Shown: piece by piece, positions 18,156 to 31,214 of the stretch | Position numbering within the stretch: position 1 is the stretch's first letter | Layout of the letters: every line of letters starts with the position of its first letter | NCBI RefSeq assembly: GCF_000016745.1 | Contig: NC_009483.1 | Span: forward strand, 2,550,001 to 2,582,000 | Direction: 5' to 3' | From: Geotalea uraniireducens Rf4 | GTDB lineage: Bacteria > Desulfobacterota > Desulfuromonadia > Geobacterales > Geobacteraceae | DNA length: 32,000 nt | Translations under genes and position numbers: made by a program | Notes under the pieces: model-generated | What the model was told of the DNA's origin: nothing | Databases searched by the model: none | What the model saw: only the letters and a program-made list of their open reading frames with translations

Positions 18156-19040
18156 ATGCAGATGCTCTGGCTTCCCATAACATTGCTGTGCGCCTTTTCC
18201 CTTGCCACCAGCGACGCCCTTACCAAAAAGGCACTCGCTGCCCGGTACAACGAATATCTCGTTGCCTGGCTCCGGCTCCTCCTGATGCTCCCTCCCCTCA
18301 CCGTCCTTCTGCTGTCGACCCCAAAGCCAACCCTCGGACCGGAGTTCCTGCTGACGATTCTAATTGCCCTCCCCCTCGAACTGGTGGCTCTAATCCTCTA
18401 CATCAAGGCGCTCAAACTCTCGCCACTCGGGTTGACGGTGCCGTTCCTGGCGCTGACACCACTCTTTCTACTGGTAATACCCTACCTTCTTCTGGGGGAG
18501 CGGATCTCCTTAACCGGCGGGATCGGCGTCCTCTTCATCGCCGCGGGAAGCTATGTCCTCAACCTGAGCAGACACGGCAACGGTATTCTGTCTCCTTTCC
18601 GGGCGATCCTCAAGGAGCGAGGATCTCTCTGCATGATCGGGGTCGCCGTCCTCTACAGCTTCACCGCCACCCTGAGCAAAAAGGCGATCTCCGTCTCGTC
18701 CCCGCTCTTTTTCGCCAGCTTTTATCCGATGCTGGTTTTTCTCTGCTTGACGCCTGTGGCACTCTGGAAAGGGCGAAACGAATTGAGGTTCATGAAACAA
18801 ACGGGGATTATGCAGGCAGCCCTGTTTCCGGCGTTCTTCAGTTTTGTGGAAACCATCACCGGAGTAGTTGCCTTGAGTCTGACCAACGTTGCGTACATGA
18901 TCGCGGTAAAACGCCTGAGCCTGCTTATGGGGATACTGTACGGATACTTTCTGTTTCGGGAGGATGGTCTGGGAGAGCGTCTTGCGGGGGGAATATTGAT
19001 GATTGCGGGAGTCGCGCTGATCGTGATCGGGGGAAGATAA
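18156..19040 (+). CDS. EamA/DMT-family transporter
   Basis: 294-aa protein with about 10 hydrophobic segments and two EamA-like halves. The start is uncertain (ATG at 18156 or 18162; no clear Shine-Dalgarno sequence). Confidence 0.8.
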   Translation: MQMLWLPITLLCAFSLATSDALTKKALAARYNEYLVAWLRLLLMLPPLTVLLLSTPKPTLGPEFLLTILIALPLELVALILYIKALKLSPLGLTVPFLALTPLFLLVIPYLLLGERISLTGGIGVLFIAAGSYVLNLSRHGNGILSPFRAILKERGSLCMIGVAVLYSFTATLSKKAISVSSPLFFASFYPMLVFLCLTPVALWKGRNELRFMKQTGIMQAALFPAFFSFVETITGVVALSLTNVAYMIAVKRLSLLMGILYGYFLFREDGLGERLAGGILMIAGVALIVIGGR

Positions 19041-19061
19041 AACCGCAGCTCCCAAGGGTTC

Positions 19062-19370
19062 CTACAGGAGTTGCACCTCGCTGACCCGAACGATCAGCAT
19101 CTCCTGGCGATAGCGAGCAGCCAGTTCCTCCCGGTAGCCCCGCCACCAGTCCTGGTCCAGTTGCTCCGTCATCACTTCATAGATGACGATATCATCATGT
19201 ACCGTCGTGGTACTGGTTTCCTTCCATAACCCCTTTGCAGGAGAGCGGACATAGGTGGTAAGACCGCCGAAACGTTCCGTCAGTTCGTCCCGCACCAGTT
19301 CAAATTCATGCTGAGGAAAAGGCTTCCCCTCATTATCGTAGAGCGGCAACAGTATCTGGATAAGATGCAT
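19062..19370 (-). CDS. Hypothetical protein
   Basis: Start placed at the internal ATG (MHLIQILLPLYDNEGKPF...), preceded by GAAGGAAA. The longer track ORF (to 19493) has no Shine-Dalgarno sequence. No family recognised. Confidence 0.55.
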   Translation of the reverse strand: MHLIQILLPLYDNEGKPFPQHEFELVRDELTERFGGLTTYVRSPAKGLWKETSTTTVHDDIVIYEVMTEQLDQDWWRGYREELAARYRQEMLIVRVSEVQLL

Positions 19371-19540
19371 GATTTCCTTCTGTTCGTGCATGCAATGGGT
19401 ATGGAACATTGTACCGCATTTTGCGGAGATTTTAGTCGGATCGCCTTCCAAAAGTGAGAAATGGAACAGAAATGGCCTGCGAGTGCAGGCCATTCAATGA
19501 AAGCATGGAATTCAAACAGGTGCGAAAACCTGCCGATATT

Positions 19541-19660
19541 TCACAGGGGGCCGGTTGATTTTTTACTGAAGAGCATGATGTACGCTAAAAAAGTGATACA
19601 GAGAGCGCCGATAAAAACAGCTGCAATCTCGAGCCCAAACTTGATAGTTGAAAATTCCAT
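19541..19660 (-). CDS. Possible 39-aa single-pass membrane peptide
   Basis: MEFSTIKFGLEIAAVFIGALCITFLAYIMLFSKKSTGPL, with a strong GGAGGG Shine-Dalgarno sequence 7 nt upstream. It is too short for the ORF track. Confidence 0.4.
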   Translation of the reverse strand: MEFSTIKFGLEIAAVFIGALCITFLAYIMLFSKKSTGPL

Positions 19661-19852
19661 GGTCAATCCCTCCAAGGTGTTAGTGATTACTGCGGGTGAC
19701 CATTTAGATAACATCATCATGTTACAGGGGGATTATGGAATGGCAAGGATCTTATGACATGTCGTAAGCTTGATTATAGCAGTAGATAGACAAGAGCGTC
19801 CCACCACGAATTTATGAAATACGCATCTTCTTCGGTTTGTTTAAACAAATAT

Positions 19853-20122
19853 TTATTGTTCCGTATTCTCCAAAAAGATAACTTCGTTGCTCCCTTCCGG
19901 ATGAGGCTTTACATGGACATGCAGAAACGCCTCGTAAGAAGGATAAATACCCATTGTGCTATACGCGTCAATGCCCTTGTCCTTTACATTCAGGTCCGTC
20001 CGCCAACAGGTTACTACCTGTCCGGTGTGAAAGATTACCCCATCGAGAACTCTTCCGGTGCCGCTGATGCCCGAGGGGTCGATTTTCCTAACAAGGGTGA
20101 AAAGCTTCGGATTTGCTTCCAT
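19853..20122 (-). CDS. 89-aa protein of unknown function, last gene of the CBASS operon
   Basis: GGAAGGTG Shine-Dalgarno sequence; the start is 11 nt after the Cap5 stop. It contains the motif DPSGISGTGRVLDGVIFHTGQVVTCW. Confidence 0.7.
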   Translation of the reverse strand: MEANPKLFTLVRKIDPSGISGTGRVLDGVIFHTGQVVTCWRTDLNVKDKGIDAYSTMGIYPSYEAFLHVHVKPHPEGSNEVIFLENTEQ

Positions 20123-20133
20123 GTGTCACCTTC

Positions 20134-21318
20134 CTATTCTACAGAACTTCTGTTTATGGCGAGTGCGCAAGTATATCCACCAGCGTCATTGATAAAGTCG
20201 TAGACCATAATTGGTGGGTCGCTTTTCGGTAAGAGCAAACGCCCACATTCAATAGCAACGGGAGCTGGCACTGCGCAAAACAGATGGATTGGCTTATTGT
20301 GCCCATTGTTTGTGCGCAAAATTTCCAGCAAACGCCTATACTCATAGCTGAACGTCTTGAGTTTTGATCGCTTAGAAAGAAAATCACGGCTAGGATTAGC
20401 CACCGATAATTCATAGCAATTATATTCATCTCCCATAACCGCAGAGACAGTAGACTTGTTAACACTGCTGCTTATGGAGATAATTACAGCTGTCTTTGCA
20501 TCAGGGTCGTGTTCCTCCGGGCCACACAAACTATAATACTGTTCAGAAAGTTCTTCTGGACTTTCCTTCCATTTCCAGTCATCGGTTTTAAGATGTCTTT
20601 GGTAGAGGTCAACAGTCCTTTTATCACCAATAAGATTACCTAAAAACACCAGCAGTGGAATTGGTGCCAATGCAAAAACAGAGATATGATTGAATTCTCT
20701 CCTTTTGACGCCTTGGTTAAAAATCTCATCGAACTTTGTTTTGATAATTCGAGATAAGAATGGCCAGTATCCTTCACCTGTTTCTTTTTCCGGTATATCT
20801 GACAAATCGATTATGTACGCATTTTCGTCAGCTGGGTACTTAGGTAGAATTGCCTGAAAAGCATGCGCCTGGTCGATATGGAAAGTTTTTCCGGCAATTG
20901 GCGCTTGGAAAATAAGGACATGGGTCTTTGAGTCTTCTTGTATTCCAGTAAGCACCTTGATTCTTTTTTCGTGCTCTGTTTTGTATTCACGAAGCAGTGC
21001 AACTGGATACTTCGGTACGTGTTCAATGCTGTCAATAATTTTACCGTGTTTTCTGCATGTAAGCATTAGATTCGAAATATCAGTTGCAAGGCGAAAAGAG
21101 TCAACGGGGTTCCCTCTTGGGCCGTTCGGTTCATAGGCGATAATATGAGAAATGACCGCCAGGTTGTCGTGCAGTTTGGTTAAATCATCAGAATATAAAA
21201 TGTCATTACAGCCGCGGAATTGGCAACGTCCGGCTGCTCGTGCCCAAAGCTGATTGACAACTTTGTCGGGAATTTTTATGCGACCTGCTTTCTTCTTTTT
21301 TTCTGGCACTTCTGCCAT
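20134..21318 (-). CDS. cap5: CBASS effector Cap5: HNH endonuclease fused to a SAVED sensor domain
   Basis: N-terminal HNH-type region (CQFRGCN..., ISHIIAYEPNGPRGN, NLMLTCRKHGKIID). The roughly 270-aa C-terminal region has SAVED-like features (HLFCAVPAPVAIECGRLLLPKSDPPIMVYDF). GGAGGG Shine-Dalgarno sequence, 10 nt after the Cap3 stop. Confidence 0.85.
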   Translation of the reverse strand: MAEVPEKKKKAGRIKIPDKVVNQLWARAAGRCQFRGCNDILYSDDLTKLHDNLAVISHIIAYEPNGPRGNPVDSFRLATDISNLMLTCRKHGKIIDSIEHVPKYPVALLREYKTEHEKRIKVLTGIQEDSKTHVLIFQAPIAGKTFHIDQAHAFQAILPKYPADENAYIIDLSDIPEKETGEGYWPFLSRIIKTKFDEIFNQGVKRREFNHISVFALAPIPLLVFLGNLIGDKRTVDLYQRHLKTDDWKWKESPEELSEQYYSLCGPEEHDPDAKTAVIISISSSVNKSTVSAVMGDEYNCYELSVANPSRDFLSKRSKLKTFSYEYRRLLEILRTNNGHNKPIHLFCAVPAPVAIECGRLLLPKSDPPIMVYDFINDAGGYTCALAINRSSVE

Positions 21319-21328
21319 AAACCCTCCA

Positions 21329-21823
21329 TTACAATAATTTCAGCATTGTAATCGTTCTCGAACGTCTGTGCCCCTCCCACATCCGCATCTCAGAGGTGCC
21401 GACAATCAGAAAGAAGAGACTATCGCTGTCGACTATGTCATTTTTCAACTTCCTTTTCCAGTTGGTATCGTCGATGCTTGACGGCGACGGATGTGGTTCC
21501 GGGTGGGTATGCCACTCGCCCAGGTAGGTGCAGGTATGATTGCTGGCCTCCCATGCCCTATCGATTACCTGCTGATGCGCCCTCTTCTTCCGGAAGAAAG
21601 TTGTCCTCGTGGCCCTGTCTCCAGGCATCGGGAAAGAAATCTTGTCAATCACGACATCCTGCGAGTCGATAATGTAGCGCCCCAACATTACGCCGCCGCC
21701 TTCCGGTTTATGCCGGTCATTTTGGATATATCCATGGATGGATGCTATCACCTCGACCGGAAGTTTGATTCGGCCGCCGTTTGGCCGGGCATATACCAGG
21801 TTATCACACAGTTTCAGGTTCAT
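21329..21823 (-). CDS. cap3: CBASS Cap3, JAB/JAMM-family isopeptidase
   Basis: JAMM motif in EASNHTCTYLGEWHTHPEPHPSPSSIDD (E...HxH...S..D). The start is uncertain: ATG at 21823 (20-nt overlap with cap2) or TTG at 21865. Confidence 0.85.
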   Translation of the reverse strand: MNLKLCDNLVYARPNGGRIKLPVEVIASIHGYIQNDRHKPEGGGVMLGRYIIDSQDVVIDKISFPMPGDRATRTTFFRKKRAHQQVIDRAWEASNHTCTYLGEWHTHPEPHPSPSSIDDTNWKRKLKNDIVDSDSLFFLIVGTSEMRMWEGHRRSRTITMLKLL

Positions 21824-23534
21824 GGCAGACAGGGCATTCTTCAAAGTGGTAATTAGCTTCCTCAATAAAATGGTCGTTCGAGGCGGAATACCTCGACGAC
21901 AGTTTCTTGCCGTTCTTCAGGAACTCCGTAGCATCGCCCCGCCATGAACGAATCAGGTTTGTTTTGATGTCGCCATTCAGTGTGGCGATAGCCAGCCTCG
22001 TAGCGAGTTCGGCAGTCTTCATGGCGTCGAGCGACCCGAACGGCGTAAAGACATTTCGGCAGCCATTAATGTTTTTGGCGAAAGACTGACCTTTTTCGGC
22101 AAATGATGCTCGGCACCGTAAATCCCCATCCTCGGGCTGATACAGACATTTAAGGCACCCCTTCTTGGAGCCGTTCCTCGTAAGAAGCGCATGCCCGCCA
22201 ATGCCATATGGCTCAAGCCAGGTGAAGATGACCGGGGGTGAATCGATGCCATGAATGTACTTGCTAAAGACCAGTTCTACCGTGACATTCCCAAGGGCGG
22301 ATATTATGAGGTCGAAATCCCCTATTTTGATTTTTCCCGATTCCAGCGCATTCTCAAGAGACAAGGGGATTGGAAGCACCTCGACAAATGGCAGTCTTCC
22401 CTCGATGTCGTCTTTGATGCCATCGACCTTATTCTTGCCGACATGTTTCTTCCCGAGAACATGACGGAACAGATTCTCATGAGTCAGCACATCCTTGTCA
22501 AGGACGGTCAATCGCAAGATGCCGGCACGAGTCAGTTCGTTGGCGATGAATCCACCAACGGAGCCGCATCCAAGCAGCAGTACACGTTTTTCGCGCAATG
22601 CCAGGTTGCTTCCGCCCCGGGGGAGAAGATACTCCTTGTCTCTCCGGGTTATGGCCAAAGGGATTATTTCACTTGCCCTCCCTGCCTCGTGCAATGGGTG
22701 CTCATGATTGACCCCCTTGAACTTGATTCCAAAGAGCGTTTCACCATCGGAGGCCCTGGGTAGGCTGAGAAGAATCACCTCTTCGTGATGAGGTTTTGTT
22801 AAGAGCGACAGCAGTTCGGATTTCTGGTCTGCCCGCAGATTGTCGAAGACTATCTTGCGGATATCGAGGAGTTCCCAGAACTTGTCAGGGTGAGGCGGAG
22901 TGATGACTGTCCCAATGGGCAACGGAATGTAGATGGCAGGATAATGTTTCCAAGGTACATGGGGTTTAATCTTGCGGTATTTCTTGTAACTCTGCTCATC
23001 GTCTGCAAGGTACCCTGCCCCACCTTTAACTTTATAAAGATGGATTCTTTTGACCTGGTCGCCAGGCGAGACAATAGAGGTAAAGAACTTCACCTTTTTG
23101 AGGCGGTCCCAGTACGCTCCGAACTCGTCAAGGAAGTCTTGATGGTTCTTCCCAGAAATGCCATCTACGACAACCTGTATGGCCCTTGAAAGTGCCTCCT
23201 GGGCTATTCCGGCAACATCGTCGAAATCGAGGACAGAGCCATCCTCCTGCGCGTAACATATATACCCGTCTGTTTCAACATGAGGGAGGATGCCAAACGA
23301 ATCCCATTGCGCCAGAAAGATATACGGAAGAGATAACGGGAAGGACTTCTTGACCCCAAAATAGAAATCTACCGGCACCCCATTCAACTCAATTACCAGC
23401 TTGTAGCTACGGCAAACAAAGCGGTCCTTGGCCCACGGTTCTGCCAGGCGCTTTGGGTGGAGTTCCGCAACAGATTTAACCAGTAGGCATGTTTCAAGTG
23501 CCTCTTTCAACAAGGATTCATCATAATTAAGCAT
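21804..23534 (-). CDS. cap2: CBASS Cap2, E2-like / E1-like (ThiF) fusion
   Basis: N-terminal E2-like domain with PHVETDGYICY (candidate catalytic Cys). Central ThiF/MoeB Rossmann LLLGCGSVGGFIANELTRAGILRLTVLDKD. C-terminal CxxC pairs (GCLKCL, ECPVCH). The start is placed at the ATG at 23534, which overlaps the CD-NTase stop by 8 nt (ATGCTTAA). Confidence 0.88.
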   Translation of the reverse strand: MLNYDESLLKEALETCLLVKSVAELHPKRLAEPWAKDRFVCRSYKLVIELNGVPVDFYFGVKKSFPLSLPYIFLAQWDSFGILPHVETDGYICYAQEDGSVLDFDDVAGIAQEALSRAIQVVVDGISGKNHQDFLDEFGAYWDRLKKVKFFTSIVSPGDQVKRIHLYKVKGGAGYLADDEQSYKKYRKIKPHVPWKHYPAIYIPLPIGTVITPPHPDKFWELLDIRKIVFDNLRADQKSELLSLLTKPHHEEVILLSLPRASDGETLFGIKFKGVNHEHPLHEAGRASEIIPLAITRRDKEYLLPRGGSNLALREKRVLLLGCGSVGGFIANELTRAGILRLTVLDKDVLTHENLFRHVLGKKHVGKNKVDGIKDDIEGRLPFVEVLPIPLSLENALESGKIKIGDFDLIISALGNVTVELVFSKYIHGIDSPPVIFTWLEPYGIGGHALLTRNGSKKGCLKCLYQPEDGDLRCRASFAEKGQSFAKNINGCRNVFTPFGSLDAMKTAELATRLAIATLNGDIKTNLIRSWRGDATEFLKNGKKLSSRYSASNDHFIEEANYHFEECPVCHEPETV

Positions 23535-24567
23535 GTGCAGAGGCACTGGCCGTGGATATGGCGCGGCTCTTTTTTTCGCCGGTGTCAGGTTTTTCCGGAA
23601 CAGGGAAATCGTCCCCAAAGACCTTTTTCAGGGTTTCACATGCCTTTACCGGGTCCACTTCGCTGGCGGCCGAGTCGAGGGCCTCCAGCAGACTGCCCAG
23701 TTTCTCCTTCAAAGTTGCCATCTGATTGTCGGTCATCTTCTCGAACAACTCGGAATAGGGTTCAACTGGGAGGTACACTCTCAGTCGGTCGCCGAAATTG
23801 TTCAGCATCCCATTGACAACACCCCTTGTTGCCTGCAGGTCGTTGTATTTGTACGTGCTCGCCACGATGTCCATTAAGGTCTTGTTGGGGGTGAACCAAT
23901 TGTATGCCGCGATGGTCAGGCCTATGCCGATTGGCGCGGCGTTTCCGTTGGAAGAGAAGTTGTAATCCTTCCACCGCTTCAAATACCGTATTACCATGAC
24001 GAATTGTTTCTTGTCGTCTCCCGCATGTTTGTCCCCGACCGTATCCGCCAACTTTTGTGGTTCGGAGATTTCCCAACATTTGTTATCGTCGGACGAATTC
24101 AGTTTCCCTTTCGCTAGGTATTTCTTGCCGTCTGAGTTACACGACTCGTCGGAATATACAGCCAGGTCCACATGATAAACCGGCTCGTCTCCTTTCTGGT
24201 AGAAAACGGTAACGCATGGCCTTCTCATGTCGACTTTCTTGGTGTGTCCGTTCAAGGCGTCATATACCCATTCCTTGACCTCCACCGGGTCCAGATAGTT
24301 GTCTTTCGAGACGTTGAAGGACACCCCGACATCGATATCGTAGTCGCTGTCCAGCGGGATAATGCCGGTACCCATTTTATAGCTCCCCTGGTCAAAAGTC
24401 TGGTACGTGGGAACCGGTTCGTCCTTCTCCTCGAAAATAGTCTTCAGACGTGACTTCAGTTTATCAAGGACGATGTCTCGTTTTTCCCTCAGGATCTGGT
24501 TTTCATCGAACTTCTTGAGCTTTATTGCATCATGAAAGGTCTCAAAATATTTTTGAACATCAGCCAT
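23527..24567 (-). CDS. CBASS cGAS/DncV-like nucleotidyltransferase (CD-NTase, SMODS domain)
   Basis: Pol-beta NTase signature: GSYKMGTGI ... DYDIDVGV ... HVDLAVY (GS, DxD, third Asp). 346 aa. Ala-terminated flexible tail ...RAISTASASAHA. GGGAGG Shine-Dalgarno sequence. Confidence 0.88.
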   Translation of the reverse strand: MADVQKYFETFHDAIKLKKFDENQILREKRDIVLDKLKSRLKTIFEEKDEPVPTYQTFDQGSYKMGTGIIPLDSDYDIDVGVSFNVSKDNYLDPVEVKEWVYDALNGHTKKVDMRRPCVTVFYQKGDEPVYHVDLAVYSDESCNSDGKKYLAKGKLNSSDDNKCWEISEPQKLADTVGDKHAGDDKKQFVMVIRYLKRWKDYNFSSNGNAAPIGIGLTIAAYNWFTPNKTLMDIVASTYKYNDLQATRGVVNGMLNNFGDRLRVYLPVEPYSELFEKMTDNQMATLKEKLGSLLEALDSAASEVDPVKACETLKKVFGDDFPVPEKPDTGEKKSRAISTASASAHA

Positions 24568-24593
24568 ATTGCCTCCCTGAATAACGAAGTGAT

Positions 24594-24848
24594 CTACTTC
24601 TTCCCTCTTCCTTGCCTCTGCGCCAATGCACTCCCCGCCGCGGTCTTTGAATCTTTATTTGTCCGTCCGTCACTCAATACCTTTGAGGCCGCTGTTGCCG
24701 CCTTTGCAGATGTAACCTTCGCCGGTGCCTTGGTCTGAGATAATGCACTACCAGCCGCTGTTTTCGATTTTGGAGCAGTACTGCCGCTTGTCAGGGTTTT
24801 TGATGCACTTGTTGCAGCCTTTGAACCTGTCACTTTTGCCTTTGTCAT
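24594..24848 (-). CDS. 84-aa Lys/Ala/Ser/Thr-rich protein made of two ~36-aa repeats (unknown function)
   Basis: Strong AAGGAGAA Shine-Dalgarno sequence before the ATG at 24848. The stop lies 27 nt before the CD-NTase start. The two repeats (AKVTGSKAATSASKTLTSGSTAPKSKTAAGSALSQT and AKVTSAKAATAASKVLSDGRTNKDSKTAAGSALAQR) are conserved as protein but diverged at synonymous sites. Confidence 0.75.
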   Translation of the reverse strand: MTKAKVTGSKAATSASKTLTSGSTAPKSKTAAGSALSQTKAPAKVTSAKAATAASKVLSDGRTNKDSKTAAGSALAQRQGRGKK

Positions 24849-24892
24849 GATGTTCTCCTTGAGCAATATTTTTCGGCATTTCACAAACCCAA

Positions 24893-25408
24893 CTACCTGA
24901 AATTCCTCGCCGACCCGAAAAAATTCGCTATCGCAATTGTCATCGCCGGTTTACTCACCTGAAAGATCCCCGCCAGTTTGTCCGGATTCTTCAAATCCGA
25001 CTGATACTTCTTCAACTGTTCCACCGGTATAAGCAGTTCCGAAGCGAAGGCATCCGCTTCCTGTTCCTTAGGCGGTTTGGCATTTTCCGGCATATCCTCA
25101 CCATATTCCCGCGCCACCTCGGCATCGTAAAACTCCCGCTTGTCGTGGTTGAGAAAGATGTGACCCAACTCGTGAGCCAGGGTGAAACGGGCACGAACGA
25201 AAGGTTTTGCCTTGTTCAACATGGCAACCCGAGTTCCGTCTAGTTCCAGAATCATCCCATCAAGTTCATCCGGATCGTCGAGCTCGACATATTCCAGGCC
25301 GAGGCTCTCACAGATTACTTGCAGGTTCGTGGGAACCTCGTTGATCTTGTGCTTTTTCAGAATCTTTCGCGCCATCTCTCTGGCATAGGTGTAGTTTGCC
25401 GCGATCAT
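24893..25408 (-). CDS. ImmA/IrrE-family zinc metallopeptidase (CapP-like)
   Basis: HEXXH in TLAHELGHIFLNH, with a downstream EQEADAFASELLIP motif typical of COG2856/ImmA. An ATGA overlap joins it to the upstream HTH gene. Confidence 0.88.
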   Translation of the reverse strand: MIAANYTYAREMARKILKKHKINEVPTNLQVICESLGLEYVELDDPDELDGMILELDGTRVAMLNKAKPFVRARFTLAHELGHIFLNHDKREFYDAEVAREYGEDMPENAKPPKEQEADAFASELLIPVEQLKKYQSDLKNPDKLAGIFQVSKPAMTIAIANFFGSARNFR

Positions 25409-26292
25409 TGTCCGCCTCCAGCCTGATCCAGGCGCTCCAGGGCAGCTTTCACCCTTGCCAGATAGTCATCGCTTACCAGCTTCTGCTCCTGAGGGCTCCC
25501 CTTTTTCTGCGCCAGTTTTTCAAGGACCTTGTTGACACTGCTTGACTGTACCGCCGCTCCCTTGGCGTCGTAACAGGTAGAACGGGCATGCACCATGGTA
25601 ACGGAGTTTTTCATGTCAAAGATGGAGAGGGTTGCATTCAGCAGCCGCTTCAGGTTGTCGAGAGTAAGTCCGAAAAACCGGACGATTCTGGCCGTAACGT
25701 CGGGAGAAATCTTTTCCGGCGGAAAGTCGTTATTCTCAATCTTTACCAGGTCCGCCGGTTCGATTTCCAGAGAAGCGCAGACCACATCGGGCAAGAGTCT
25801 GGTGGCGGCAATCACTTCCCTGATGTATTCGCCAAAGGAGATATATTGCTCCAGCAGGGATGTATTGGCCTTTTGTATTGCGGTGGTCCGCTCATTCTGC
25901 AACAGGTTGACGCGGGCATCGGGCACCTTTTCGATGAGGTTATGCACCAACAGGTTCATTGACGGCGTGATCGCCACCTCTCCCCGTTCCCAGCGGCCGT
26001 AGGTATTGCGCCCGATCTGCAGCAGATCGCAAATCTCGTCCAGCTTCATATCAAGAACGCGGCGCAACGTTTTCAGTTGCTCCGGCGTCAGGAGCGGCTT
26101 CAGCCCGAACTCCATGGCGATCCTCTTCTTGTCGATCTCCAGGCTCTGGGCATGGGTAAAGGTCACCTCCCCGCAGGCCGGGCAGATTTCGCAATCAAGG
26201 TCGTGTAAGACGTGACTCTCGTCGTTGACGGTTATGGTAAGTTCGGTTTTGGCAGCGCGGTATTCGGCCTCAAAACAGTTCGTGCAGATCAT
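25405..26292 (-). CDS. MqsA-like zinc-ribbon plus XRE HTH protein with a second HTH-like domain and C-terminal extension
   Basis: N-terminal CxxC...CxxC ribbon (CTNCFEAEY...CEICPACGEVTF). HTH LTPEQLKTLRRVLDMKLDEICDLLQIGRNTYGRWERGEVAITPSMNLLV, as in MqsA/YgiT. A second XRE-like segment FGEYIREVIAATRLLPDVVCASLEIEPADLVKIENNDF. 295 aa, whereas I recall about 130 aa for MqsA. Confidence 0.8.
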   Translation of the reverse strand: MICTNCFEAEYRAAKTELTITVNDESHVLHDLDCEICPACGEVTFTHAQSLEIDKKRIAMEFGLKPLLTPEQLKTLRRVLDMKLDEICDLLQIGRNTYGRWERGEVAITPSMNLLVHNLIEKVPDARVNLLQNERTTAIQKANTSLLEQYISFGEYIREVIAATRLLPDVVCASLEIEPADLVKIENNDFPPEKISPDVTARIVRFFGLTLDNLKRLLNATLSIFDMKNSVTMVHARSTCYDAKGAAVQSSSVNKVLEKLAQKKGSPQEQKLVSDDYLARVKAALERLDQAGGGQ

Positions 26293-26303
26293 GGTCGTTT
26301 CCT

Positions 26304-26642
26304 CTATTTGATCGTGAAAGAGGTCAGCTTCCAGCCGATGAATTCACCGGTCTGCGGGTGGTAGTTGCTGCACACCTTGCAGTAAACCGCCACCCCGGTG
26401 GTGCTGGTCCCCTGTATCACATAGTGGGTGTTGTGCGGATTGCTTGCCCGCTCGCTCGTTGCCGGCATGGCCTTCTCAATAGTGTCGGCAGCCATGATGA
26501 CCTTTTCCACATCGGCCTCGTAGAGCTTGGCGCGATCCATGTCGTCCATGCAATCCCTGGTTTTACGTATCTTCCCCACCAGATAGGCATCCTTAATTCT
26601 CTTGAGGACAAGATCATCCAGTTCCGTTCCAATTGGTGTCAT
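26304..26642 (-). CDS. MqsR-like toxin-fold protein (tentative)
   Basis: 112 aa from the ATG at 26642. Hand alignment to E. coli MqsR recalled from memory: GKIRKTRDC vs GQVRTTRSA, VAVYCKV vs QVYLKIT, WKLTSFTIK vs LIVSFKEK. The gene order is toxin-first, as in mqsRA. Start could also be 26660. Confidence 0.55.
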   Translation of the reverse strand: MTPIGTELDDLVLKRIKDAYLVGKIRKTRDCMDDMDRAKLYEADVEKVIMAADTIEKAMPATSERASNPHNTHYVIQGTSTTGVAVYCKVCSNYHPQTGEFIGWKLTSFTIK

Positions 26643-26712
26643 ACATACCCCAGACAACATACTGCACCAATTGGTGTTATTATTAATATACCAATTGGTG
26701 TTTTGATGTCAA
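26627..26712 (-). promoter_or_regulatory. Sigma70-type promoter with three palindromic operators for the nine-gene operon
   Basis: On the minus strand: TTGACA (26712-26707), 16-nt spacer, TATATT. The 11-mer ACACCAATTGG occurs three times (plus-strand CCAATTGGTGT at 26691-26701, 26667-26677 and 26629-26639). The full palindrome CACCAATTGGTG is at 26665-26676. Confidence 0.75.
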
Positions 26713-26845
26713 TTAATTTCTCATTCCATGATTTTTGCTGCTGATTTCACCGAGCTACAACTCTCTGTCATCGCAGATAGCAAGGACAAAGCTATCAGCT
26801 CAGCTATATTCGTAATTTCGAAAACATGCAACAATACCCCAGAAA

Positions 26846-26889
26846 TCAAAAAAGCCGCCAATCAGCATATCCCTGACCCGGCGGCTTTT
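26846..26889. terminator. Bidirectional terminator-like hairpin upstream of the island promoter
   Basis: Stem AAGCCGCC (26852-26859) / GGCGGCTT (26880-26887), with inner TCAG/CTGA pairing. It is flanked by an A-run and a T-run. Confidence 0.55.
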
Positions 26890-27088
26890 ATCTACACGCA
26901 GTGCATCTATTCCACTTTTTATCACCCATCCAAAAAAACTCCGCATAACGCAATAAAATCAGCTTTCTATTTACACCCTGGATGCACTCGGTGTCAACCT
27001 TTAGAAGGGAAAAAGGGTCTGCGCTTGACAAGAGGCAAATGCTTTCTTTAACAATCCATTAATAACCTACACCCCATAAAAGACTAAT

Positions 27089-27185
27089 TTAACAGGGATG
27101 AACAGGATGAACGGGATGACACCACTCAAGCTAAATTCACTCCCTGTTAAGTCAGATTTGGGATTCTGTCAGAGGGCGTCATCCC
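27089..27185. repeat. Nested inverted repeats plus three tandem 9-mers
   Basis: TTAACAGGGA (27089-27098) / TCCCTGTTAA (27141-27150). Tandem GGGATGAAC-AGGATGAAC-GGGATGAC(A) at 27095-27121. GGGATGAC (27113-27120) / GTCATCCC (27178-27185). Confidence 0.6.
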
Positions 27186-27256
27186 TCGTCACTGGACAAG
27201 TCTCCAGCCGGCCTCGAAAGATCAGCCTTCCAAGCCATGTCTCCTCTTACCCACCA

Positions 27257-27288
27257 AACAAAAAAGCCGTCCCGTCAGCACGACGGAC
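27257..27288 (-). terminator. Rho-independent terminator (second of two after brnA)
   Basis: On the minus strand, a GTCCGTC / GACGG(G)AC stem followed by GGCTTTTTTGTTTGG. Confidence 0.5.
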
Positions 27289-27360
27289 CTTTCTACCCTG
27301 GATATTTACCCGCTTACCGGCGTATGGGCGTACCCTGACAACCTCCATAAGGCGGCACAA

Positions 27361-27388
27361 ACGAAAAAGGCCGCATTGTCGCGGCCTC
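27361..27388 (-). terminator. Rho-independent terminator after brnA
   Basis: AGGCCGC / GCGGCCT 7-bp stem with a 6-nt loop, followed on the minus strand by TTTTTCGTTTG. Confidence 0.6.
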
Positions 27389-27531
27389 ACGTGCAGAACT
27401 ATTGCTCTCAATCTACCTCTCTCACCGCAGAGAACGTAGAGGACGCAGAGGAATGCTAGAAATGACTTCAAGCAGCGCCTCAGGCTGCTACTTTCCGTTA
27501 AAGGTATAAGGCTGTCACAGCCGGCTTGTCC

Positions 27532-27750
27532 TTACGCCGCCTTTTTCGCCTTGGCTCTAGCGATCCGGACGAGTGACCGCAAGGCATCGTTCACCGATTT
27601 CGAATCGGGGAAAAAATCGGCGACATCCTTTTCAAGCAGGACCAGATTCGTCCCCTTCGCATACTCTCCCGCATATTTTCCTTTCACCCCCGTTTTCATT
27701 GCGGAGAGATCATATTCGGGACGCACATCATCATTACTCGTTTTCTTCAT
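27532..27750 (-). CDS. brnA: BrnA-type antitoxin
   Basis: 72 aa. MKK...RPEYDLSAMKTGVKGKYA...GTNLVLLEKDVADFFPDSKSVNDALRSL matches the antitoxin family usually paired with BrnT/DUF497. 17-nt overlap with the upstream toxin frame. Confidence 0.75.
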   Translation of the reverse strand: MKKTSNDDVRPEYDLSAMKTGVKGKYAGEYAKGTNLVLLEKDVADFFPDSKSVNDALRSLVRIARAKAKKAA

Positions 27751-28008
27751 AGTAGTTCCTCTCGGCGCGAGTCGCCTTTCTTGCAGAGATTATTCTGATA
27801 GCCCCGGCCCGGTCGGCATGTGCAAAGAGCAGCACCCGTCCTGCCTCCGACATGCCGATGGTAATGAACCGTTCCTCATCCTCAGAATGGTCAGGATCAG
27901 GAAATGTCAACGACAAGGGATCACCAAAAACAGAAGCAGCTTCAGCGAAGGAAACGCCGTGTTCTTCAGGTTGCTCACAGCCTTTCTCTTATCCCAGGCG
28001 AATTGCAT
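27734..28008 (-). pseudogene. brnT: BrnT (DUF497) toxin gene with a 1-nt frameshift
   Basis: The ATG at 28008 gives MQFAWDKRKAVSNLK, after which the frame derails. The remainder, (E)HGVSFAEAASVFGDPLSLTFPDPDHSEDEERFITIGMSEAGRVLLFAHADRAGAIRIISARKATRAERNYY, is in another frame. The junction AAGAACAC (about 27964) appears to lack one base relative to the expected K-K-H-G. Confidence 0.7.

Positions 28009-31139: not shown

Positions 31140-31214
<75 letters not shown>

Follow-up and report, generated by a model that had tools for sequence, protein, structure and literature searches.

A predicted MqsA-family repressor and paired promoter palindromes at the head of a type II CBASS operon in Geotalea uraniireducens Rf4

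The window analyzed here, 32,000 nucleotides of Geotalea uraniireducens Rf4 (contig NC_009483.1, positions 2,550,001 to 2,582,000 of the forward strand), encodes a complete type II cyclic oligonucleotide-based antiphage signaling system (CBASS), with a CD-NTase, Cap2, Cap3, and a cyclic-nucleotide-sensing effector identified by PADLOC and in agreement with Pfam. These genes form the distal half of an array of eight genes on the minus strand that opens with a small open reading frame (ORF), here called s112, and continues with a helix-turn-helix (HTH) protein of the MqsA family, an M78 peptidase, and a small repeat protein, p84, over a promoter-to-Cap4 span of ∼6.6 kb (∼26712 to 20134) (Table 1). 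Three copies of the 11-mer ACACCAATTGG lie in and immediately behind the promoter upstream of s112. We consider it likely, from the sequence comparisons described below, that the MqsA-family repressor acting at two of these copies gates the CBASS operon, its own gene included, that the peptidase relieves this repression, and that the third copy is not a full operator.

Table 1. Features of the regulated promoter and the CBASS operon, in order of transcription (positions are those of the window)
Feature	Position	Strand	Remarks
Intrinsic terminator-like hairpin and U-tract	26849..26889	-	-22.9 kcal/mol, z = -3.7; 0/200 shuffles fold as well
-35 TTGACA	26707..26712	-	Promoter scan; kept in relatives as TTgaca with an A-rich tract upstream
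Operator site A (very probable) ACACCAATTGGTAT	26688..26701	-	In the -35/-10 spacer; right arm fused to the extended -10 (TGgTATATT)
-10 TATATT, preceded by TG	26685..26690	-	Promoter scan; conserved in relatives
Operator site B (very probable) ACACCAATTGGTGC	26664..26677	-	Spans the predicted transcription start (∼26678/26677) to ∼+14
Shine-Dalgarno-like GGGG	26648..26651	-	5 nt before the ATG; conserved G-rich block there in relatives
s112 start codon	26640..26642	-	Most of 185 homologues called at 112 amino acids (aa); Shine-Dalgarno sequence conserved; conservation starts at M-T-P-I-G
Copy 1 ACACCAATTGG	26629..26639	-	Encodes T-P-I-G (codons 2-5); nucleotide-level constraint confined to the left arm ACACCAAT
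s112, 112-aa uncharacterized family	26304..26642	-	Possibly toxin-like, BECR/RelE superfamily (DUF4258/MqsR-like)
MqsA-family repressor, 295 aa	25405..26292	-	Zn-ribbon 1-46, HTH 70-122, second HTH-like ∼153-207, conserved disordered ∼235-249, C-terminal helices
M78 peptidase, 171 aa, HExxH, CapP/ImmA-like	24893..25408	-	Start overlaps HTH stop (ATGA); PADLOC capP 5e-28
p84, 84-aa basic repeat protein	24594..24848	-	Two phrog_5079 domains
CD-NTase (CBASS cyclase)	23527..24567	-	PADLOC Cyclase 1.2e-127
Cap2 (E2-E1 fusion)	21804..23618	-	PADLOC E1-E2 7.6e-170; true start probably downstream of the listed TTG
Cap3 (JAB deconjugase)	21329..21865	-	PADLOC JAB 8.6e-53
Cap4 (endonuclease-SAVED effector)	20134..21318	-	PADLOC 7.2e-117

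The three exact copies of the 11-mer lie on the minus strand at 26701 to 26691 (copy 3), 26677 to 26667 (copy 2), and 26639 to 26629 (copy 1), and their centers at 26694.5, 26670.5, and 26632.5 give the spacings of 24 and 38 bp stated in the original prediction, which was also right to describe copy 2 as a complete 12-bp palindrome (26665 to 26676). The 11-mer has no further copy in the window, and the three copies are likewise the sole occurrences there of the 8-bp core CCAATTGG, for which 0.87 would be expected. None of 300 dinucleotide-preserving shuffles of the window contained any 11-mer three times within 100 nt, and on the strength of this result and the core count we rejected chance clustering. 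Copy 3 is referred to below as site A and copy 2 as site B. Compared with a 14-bp ideal palindrome, ACACCAATTGGTGT, site A and site B each match at 13 of 14 positions; copy 1 extended to the same length reads ACACCAATTGGAAC, with a right arm that ends at GG. Read along the minus strand, the region runs AATTAA-TTGACA-TCAAA-ACACCAATTGGTAT-ATTAATAATA-ACACCAATTGGTGC-AGTATGTTGTCTGGGGTATGT-ATG-ACACCAATTGG-AACGGA.

A promoter scan placed the best site of the region exactly here, a promoter of the sigma-70 type with TTGACA and TATATT separated by a 16-nt spacer and a TG extending the -10 element (11 of 12 matches). Copy 3 had been predicted to fill that spacer; its location is as described, and it occupies the last 11 nt. 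The transcription start on which site B lies is predicted from the position of the -10 element only. Copy 1 had been placed on the start codon of s112; it instead adjoins the ATG (26642 to 26640) and forms codons 2 to 5, Thr-Pro-Ile-Gly. A 118-aa version of this ORF, starting at an upstream ATG, was considered and rejected, as the homologues do not back it.

The HTH family has 242 cluster representatives and the small-ORF family 185, and a genome scan with an HTH alignment yielded 38 loci from Geobacter and other Desulfuromonadales, Syntrophales, Thermodesulfovibrionia, and Ignavibacteria. All 30 protein-selected loci that include the DNA upstream of the small ORF have site A between the -35 and -10 elements (TTGACA-N8-9-CACCAATTGGTATAtt), and in 24 of them a second palindrome, aCACCAATTGGTGt, follows 23 to 26 bp downstream. 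Site B is conserved in 48 nonredundant loci, and distant Syntrophales-type loci carry the spacer site only. The DNA around the palindromes cannot be aligned among relatives, and no further occurrence of the palindrome (CACCAATTGGTR) was found in the 548,575 bp of related loci. An information profile, for which 40 loci were selected by motif, gives ∼2 bits per position across CACCAATTGGTAT and ACCAATTGGTG and ∼0 in the flanks, except at the -35 and -10 elements and an upstream A-tract; protein-selected loci show the same pattern. In the three loci where the small ORF is absent (L030, L034, and L056), the palindromes stand directly upstream of the HTH gene.

The association also holds in the reverse direction. 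A search of metagenome contigs by DNA pattern alone (ACCAATTGGTAT-N8-14-ACCAATTGGTG) returned 40 contigs, 38 of which encode s112 and/or the HTH protein 20 to 25 nt downstream, making the operator sequence a simple finder for further cassettes. The operator pair had no match in viral contigs. We conclude that sites A and B are very probably operators of the MqsA-like HTH repressor. It is highly improbable that they are instead bound by another factor, such as s112 or a host protein, or that they mark recombination or insertion sites at the boundary of a mobile cassette. The cassette is indeed modular and precedes many cargos, and palindromes containing CAATTG could be enzyme sites, but the motif accompanies the HTH gene even where s112 is missing, lies upstream of the cassette rather than at the junction of cassette and cargo, keeps a fixed register to the -35 and -10 elements, and fits the ACC-N4-GGT logic of MqsA operators.

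The 2 pattern matches of the 40 that lacked an HTH gene (L054 and L065) were traced to an unrelated mobile element, rich in AT, in which similar palindromes are clustered, and were set aside. Between ∼700 and 900 of L054 and between ∼4950 and 5100 of L065 lie five to six related intergenic palindromes, including GCACCAACTGGTGC, GTACCAATTGGTAT, ACACCAATTGGTGT, and GTACCAATTGGGGG; the AT-rich element is mobile or viral-like and encodes a D5-like P-loop primase/helicase, and no MqsA-like gene was detected nearby. This cluster could be an origin or the operator array of an unrelated or very distant regulator.

The identity of the HTH protein is well supported. It matches the Pfam family MqsA_antitoxin (PF15731) over residues 1 to 125 with 47.8 bits against a cutoff of 30, and TIGR03830 with 63.2 against a cutoff of 61.8. 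Residues 1 to 116 align end to end with Escherichia coli MqsA (PDB 2KZ8 and 3GN5), C3, C6, C37, and C40 are invariant in the family, and the AlphaFold model (mean pLDDT of 85) has as its top Foldseek matches MqsA 3GN5 (E value of 2e-6) and the MqsA N-terminal domain from the complex with MqsR. Weaker structural matches include DdrO. MqsA contacts DNA through Asn97 and Arg101 (PMC5422877), and these align with N96 and R100 of the protein here, of which the former is nearly invariant and the latter invariant in the family. The best-conserved family peptides are YGRWERGE, in the recognition helix, and ITPSMNLL, just after it. The E. coli MqsA site is AACCT-N3-AGGTT, or AACCT-TA-AGGTT at csgD, and two copies are present in the MqsA promoter itself (PMC4894380); the ACC-AATT-GGT found here shares its ACC-N4/5-GGT core. 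The original prediction had pointed to the short palindrome that MqsA binds, a likeness that is correct and can be sharpened to this core and to the conserved contact residues. Family proteins diverge to ∼43% identity while recognition helix and operator stay invariant, which is how a cognate repressor-operator pair would be expected to look.

The repressor extends well beyond the MqsA-like region. A second HTH-like helical domain spans residues ∼153 to 207, with a weak Pfam match to HTH_19 at residues 175 to 216, and the segment at ∼235 to 249 (VHARSTxYDAKG), conserved in sequence and predicted to be disordered, is a plausible candidate, on the model, for a cleavage or recognition site. We also note a short form of the HTH protein (133 to 255 aa; L029 to L038, L060, L068, and L069) whose homology is limited to residues 1 to 134. 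Loci with this form have the same operators, never have the peptidase, and often carry a YhcG/DUF1016 PDDEXK nuclease gene behind the HTH gene; they may represent an ancestral, MqsRA-like state of the cassette.

The regulated promoter most simply drives everything from s112 to Cap4. Intergenic gaps are short (26 to 44 nt behind the peptidase gene), the genes have good Shine-Dalgarno sequences, no convincing internal promoter or terminator was found between the regulators and the CBASS genes, and a terminator-like hairpin lies ∼135 nt upstream of the -35 element. Together with the overlap of the HTH and peptidase genes, these features make a single insulated operon of ∼6.6 kb, headed by the palindrome-bearing promoter, the simplest reading. 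The upstream hairpin, terminator-like in form, would shield the operon from upstream transcription. It had escaped the terminator scan, its stem-loop between the GC-rich arms exceeding the loop limit of the scan, and it stands between a BrnT region (see below) and the operator-bearing promoter.

The layout at the head of the operon, a toxin-like ORF followed by an MqsA-like gene behind two promoter palindromes, mirrors that of E. coli mqsRA, and some relatives have this pair without a peptidase. One might therefore suppose that the palindromes serve plain toxin-antitoxin autoregulation, controlling the MqsRA-like pair only, with the peptidase and CBASS expressed independently. We regard this as improbable. 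The stretch from the HTH gene to Cap4, with its overlapping peptidase start, short gaps, and lack of a convincing promoter or terminator, speaks against it, as does the arrangement in relatives, where the cargo is always co-oriented and close behind the cassette whatever its coding content; nor is s112 demonstrably a toxin. The autorepression layout that had been proposed, with a concrete DNA target for an MqsA-like dimer, is upheld for sites A and B by the comparative evidence, but not as a simple toxin-antitoxin layout, since the promoter heads a CBASS operon, and not with copy 1 as an equivalent operator.

Copy 1 follows rules of its own. It is exact in 7 of 49 nonredundant relatives, the commonest form being ACACCAATCGG, and the peptide Thr-Pro-Ile-Gly dictates 8 of its 11 bases. 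The right arm is never operator-like: Gly is encoded by GGG or GGA, never by GGT, and an ACN codon follows. The left arm is under constraint beyond its coding content: of 17 Thr codons at codon 2, 16 are ACA, and of 23 Pro codons at codon 3, 19 are CCA, compared with a background use of 11 to 12%. Usage at the Ile wobble matches the background, and Thr at codon 6 draws on all four of its codons, indicating that synonymous sites in the s112 family are otherwise free. With more sequences included, A or G occupies the two wobble positions in 81 of 82 cases (G in 14 of 82), and C or T almost never does, the pattern expected from pairing with U. Site B, which the predicted start would place in the transcript, has a right arm, AUUGGUGU, that can pair with ACACCAAU of copy 1.

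All three copies could in principle be equivalent sites for repressor dimers, with copy 1 adding a roadblock or a loop at the start codon, 62 bp or about six helical turns from site A. The identity of the 11-mer in the window, its exact conservation in L003, L004, L029, and L035 as well, the excess of ACA-CCA at codons 2 and 3 over codon-usage expectation, and the conservation of s112 residues 1 to 6 despite their being predicted as unstructured would all suit such a model. We nevertheless think it unlikely, given the rarity of exact copies among relatives and a right arm that never fits the operator, and given that G is tolerated at wobble positions where sites A and B have an invariant A, which suits U-A/U-G pairing better than base-specific protein contact.

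The alternative is a leader hairpin, formed at the 5' end of the mRNA between the right arm of site B and copy 1, that would damp s112 translation or stabilize the mRNA; it would complement and not replace the operator role of sites A and B. The leader in the window folds in this way with a 10-bp outer stem, and the hairpin, whose loop contains the Shine-Dalgarno sequence and whose stem has the AUG at its base, is part of the minimum-energy fold in 42 of 49 nonredundant relatives (-15 to -20 kcal/mol, mean z = -2.3). Standard pairs make up 91% of pair cells, every one-sided change at the two wobble-position pairs is from A to G and gives U-G, and one pair has changed on both sides (UA in 24, CG in 5). 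Covariation is marginal, however (0.081 versus 0.070; 5 of 500 shuffles reached this score), and unconstrained related sequences could give it. Of 41 sequences, 24 have an A-C mismatch at the central pair, a longer construct from the window that runs into the ORF has z = -1.0 against -1.9 for the shorter leader, and the model rests on the predicted start site; moreover, two operator-like sequences pair automatically, so that the hairpin may be a by-product. We consider it a serious possibility that falls somewhat short of probable. Copy 1 is, in our view, not an equivalent third operator; it would serve in a leader hairpin, which we slightly favor, or else as a weak half-operator.

The predicted structure of s112 (pLDDT of 91) packs three helices on a four- to five-stranded sheet. 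Searches of Pfam, PADLOC, NCBIfam, and PHROGs gave no significant match, a profile search of the PDB gave none either, and Foldseek searches against the PDB and BFVD returned nothing at an E value of ≤0.001; the best plausible PDB match, a chain of a toxin-antitoxin complex (7VD7_A, TM of 0.45 to 0.52), is not significant. Below threshold, DUF4258 is matched by 42 of 63 family members (best 5e-4) and MqsR_toxin by 13 of 63 (best 0.04), and hhalign against MqsR gave a probability of 3%, which is not significant. An exhaustive profile search of 1.8 billion representatives found 28 relatives, the remote ones matching DUF4258 weakly, and weak viral structural matches include a DUF4258 phage protein and MuF C-terminal domain proteins. 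Fusions of DUF4258 with MqsA have been recorded (PMC11980606). The below-threshold matches point consistently toward toxins of the BECR/RelE superfamily, and we describe s112 as possibly toxin-like and nothing stronger. The family also has invariant or near-invariant C31, C88-x-x-C91, and H95, which may form a metal site and have no counterpart in MqsR; C91 is lost in the divergent L019 subfamily.

The peptidase aligns with residues 91 to 161 of the 291-aa CapP of PDB 7T5T and covers positions 5 to 152 of the 242-position PADLOC capP profile. It also matches the PADLOC RmrA models (best 6.5e-15) and NCBIfam spr1629. An intact peptidase gene is adjacent in 27 of 42 loci with the long HTH form and in 0 of 13 with the short form, counts drawn from sequences that are not independent. 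The p84 protein is of low complexity and consists of two copies of a repeat of ∼40 to 49 aa (KAAT-ASK-L--G-T---SKTAAGSAL-Q), matching phrog_5079 in two stretches (E value of 1e-20). Its gene lies between peptidase and cargo, and it recurs after the peptidase in L004, L009, and L012, after the short HTH gene in L068, and in L033; it seems to be part of the regulatory cassette rather than of CBASS.

We hypothesize that repressor dimers bind the two 14-bp palindromes (aCACCAATTGGTrt), where occupancy of site A would cover the spacer and the extended -10 element and occupancy of site B would cover the transcription start, so that RNA polymerase is excluded and the whole operon, repressor gene included, is held at a low, autoregulated level; the comparative evidence is the basis for this part. 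Derepression would most likely come from the co-encoded peptidase cleaving the C-terminal extension of the repressor, by analogy with CapP-CapH and ImmA-ImmR and in view of the co-occurrence of the two genes. MqsR stops MqsA from binding DNA in E. coli and Pseudomonas putida (PMC5422877), and s112 might, more speculatively, modulate DNA binding by the repressor through its Zn-ribbon in the same manner, an anti-repressor role that is possible by this analogy. Copy 1, rather than serving as a full operator, would contribute its conserved left arm to a leader hairpin formed with the right arm of site B in the mRNA, where the start codon of s112 would be buried, or else it would act as a weak auxiliary half-site.

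Several points weigh against this reading. The transcription start, the protein-DNA binding, and the cleavage are all in silico predictions; the information profile is partly circular through its motif-selected loci, and the co-occurrence and footprint counts come from related, nonindependent sequences. The peptidase has neither the linker and GAF domain nor the cysteine switch by which CapP senses single-stranded DNA (ssDNA), and 15 of the 42 long-HTH loci have no intact adjacent peptidase, so that repression can exist without it. A PADLOC scan of the 295-aa protein gave only two weak PDC-S02 matches and no capH. Finally, the 24-bp spacing sets the two dimers on different faces of the helix, and cooperativity is not self-evident.

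A bolder version of the argument, which we find doubtful but worth stating, is that a small BECR-like protein, a long MqsA-type repressor, a minimal M78 peptidase without a GAF domain, and p84 make up an as yet undescribed, portable four-part sensor-switch for antiphage operons that merges toxin-antitoxin logic with proteolytic derepression, with a component other than the peptidase reading the signal and the operator doubling as an RNA element. As the peptidase lacks the ssDNA-sensing domains of CapP, the infection signal would be read elsewhere, the candidates being s112 on the Zn-ribbon of the repressor, the second HTH-like domain of the repressor, and p84. If this were true, one 14-bp sequence would act at both the DNA and the RNA level, the pairing of site B with copy 1 throttling translation of the first gene.

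The cassette is found in front of very different cargos. The cyclase of the window has no homologue in any of the 38 genome loci, and the genes behind the same cassette and operators elsewhere include E2-E1-JAB fusions with patatin, patatin with CD-NTase, SIR2 with HerA, Zn-dependent phospholipase C, multiubiquitin with E1 and DUF6527, GMT-wHTH/DUF5131 genes, YhcG-type PDDEXK nucleases, and a SMEK-STAND ATPase; the switch precedes at least nine cargo types. Understanding it would show how a set of defense islands in Geobacter-like and related anaerobes stays silent and is then induced. The cis-element is unusually clean and tractable, with two near-invariant 14-bp palindromes in a near-consensus promoter that are tied to a specific repressor family.

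Upstream of the operon, an ORF at 27532 to 27916 (minus strand) matches Pfam BrnT_toxin (E value of 1.7e-14) over profile positions 29 to 77 only, so its start may be mis-set or the gene truncated, and it overlaps a 72-aa putative BrnA-like partner, with which it makes up a second toxin-antitoxin module that closely precedes the CBASS operon. The G+C content is 0.43 to 0.53 over positions 19000 to 27500, which hold the CBASS and toxin-antitoxin genes, compared with 0.58 to 0.64 in parts of the flanks, and a tRNA-Gly gene lies ∼4 kb away (31140 to 31214, minus strand). The low G+C content and the nearby tRNA gene are consistent with a horizontally acquired defense island.

To our knowledge, transcriptional gating is known for a minority of CBASS and other abortive-infection systems and involves three types of regulators: CapW/BrxR, CapH/CapP, and CapK/CapS. 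We found no literature tying MqsA-type regulators to CBASS or to M78-peptidase defense regulators. The closest parallel is CapH/CapP, in which a CBASS promoter is controlled by an HTH repressor that an ssDNA-activated M78 peptidase cleaves (Lau et al. 2022, bioRxiv 10.1101/2022.04.27.489752; Calloji et al. 2026 preprint). As in that system, genes for an HTH repressor and an M78 (IrrE/ImmA-type) Zn-peptidase lie directly upstream of a defense operon, the repressor binds the promoter (as is proposed here), and the cargo classes are alike, namely, CBASS of several types, E2-E1-JAB ("6a") operons, and multiubiquitin/E1 ("6e") operons. The locus departs from CapH/CapP in each point of architecture that was compared. 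The CapH/CapP regulators are divergent, whereas those here and in relatives are co-directional and apparently cotranscribed with the cargo, and an extra toxin-like first gene and often p84 are present. CapH is a protein of ∼107 aa, and the repressor here is a 295-aa MqsA-family Zn-ribbon-HTH protein that PADLOC does not match to CapH. The CapH operator is a 22-bp element upstream of the -35 element; the operators here are placed within the core promoter and over the predicted start site. CapP joins its peptidase to an HTH-like linker and a GAF domain that form an ssDNA-binding groove, both of which are missing from the 171-aa peptidase, and the cysteine-switch loop found in about a third of CapPs is absent, the residue aligned to the Cys113 region being an Asp ("FYDAEV" versus "FQCSD"). 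The GAF-less peptidase raises the question of which signal is sensed.

With MqsR/MqsA of E. coli and P. putida, the locus shares a toxin or toxin-like gene in first position, a repressor with a Zn-ribbon N-terminal domain and HTH, and the equivalents of Asn97 and Arg101. The MqsRA operators, ACC-N4/5-GGT, occur twice per promoter in E. coli and are autorepressing, and the palindromes here are similar, although the half-site is CACC-AA rather than the AACCT of MqsA. Unlike MqsA, the repressor here has ∼160 extra C-terminal residues; unlike MqsR, the upstream protein matches MqsR_toxin and DUF4258 below threshold only, and the operon runs on into a peptidase and an antiphage system.

Other HTH-M78 pairs share individual parts of the design. 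In ImmR/ImmA (ICEBs1 and phage phi105), a gene for a short single-domain M78 peptidase, which we take to be of similar size to the one here (∼169 aa), is cotranscribed with the gene for an autoregulated HTH repressor, and ImmA cleaves ImmR, turning on a mobile-element or defense program; ImmR, however, is cI-like without a Zn-ribbon, the regulated genes are divergent and serve excision and transfer, and there is no toxin-like partner. In DdrO/IrrE (PprI) of Deinococcus, an M78 peptidase cuts an HTH repressor in its C-terminal dimerization region and so derepresses its targets, but IrrE has a GAF domain and binds ssDNA between domains, and the DdrO regulon is dispersed over the genome and has a different palindrome. 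Rosmer (RmrT/RmrA) and other HTH-M78 antitoxin systems likewise link an M78 peptidase to an HTH protein and a toxin in a defense context; RmrA is a single fused HTH-peptidase, whereas the locus here has separate genes, an MqsA-type HTH, and a complete CBASS behind them. Relative to regulation of the CapH/CapP and MqsRA types, the locus appears in silico to represent another regulatory architecture.

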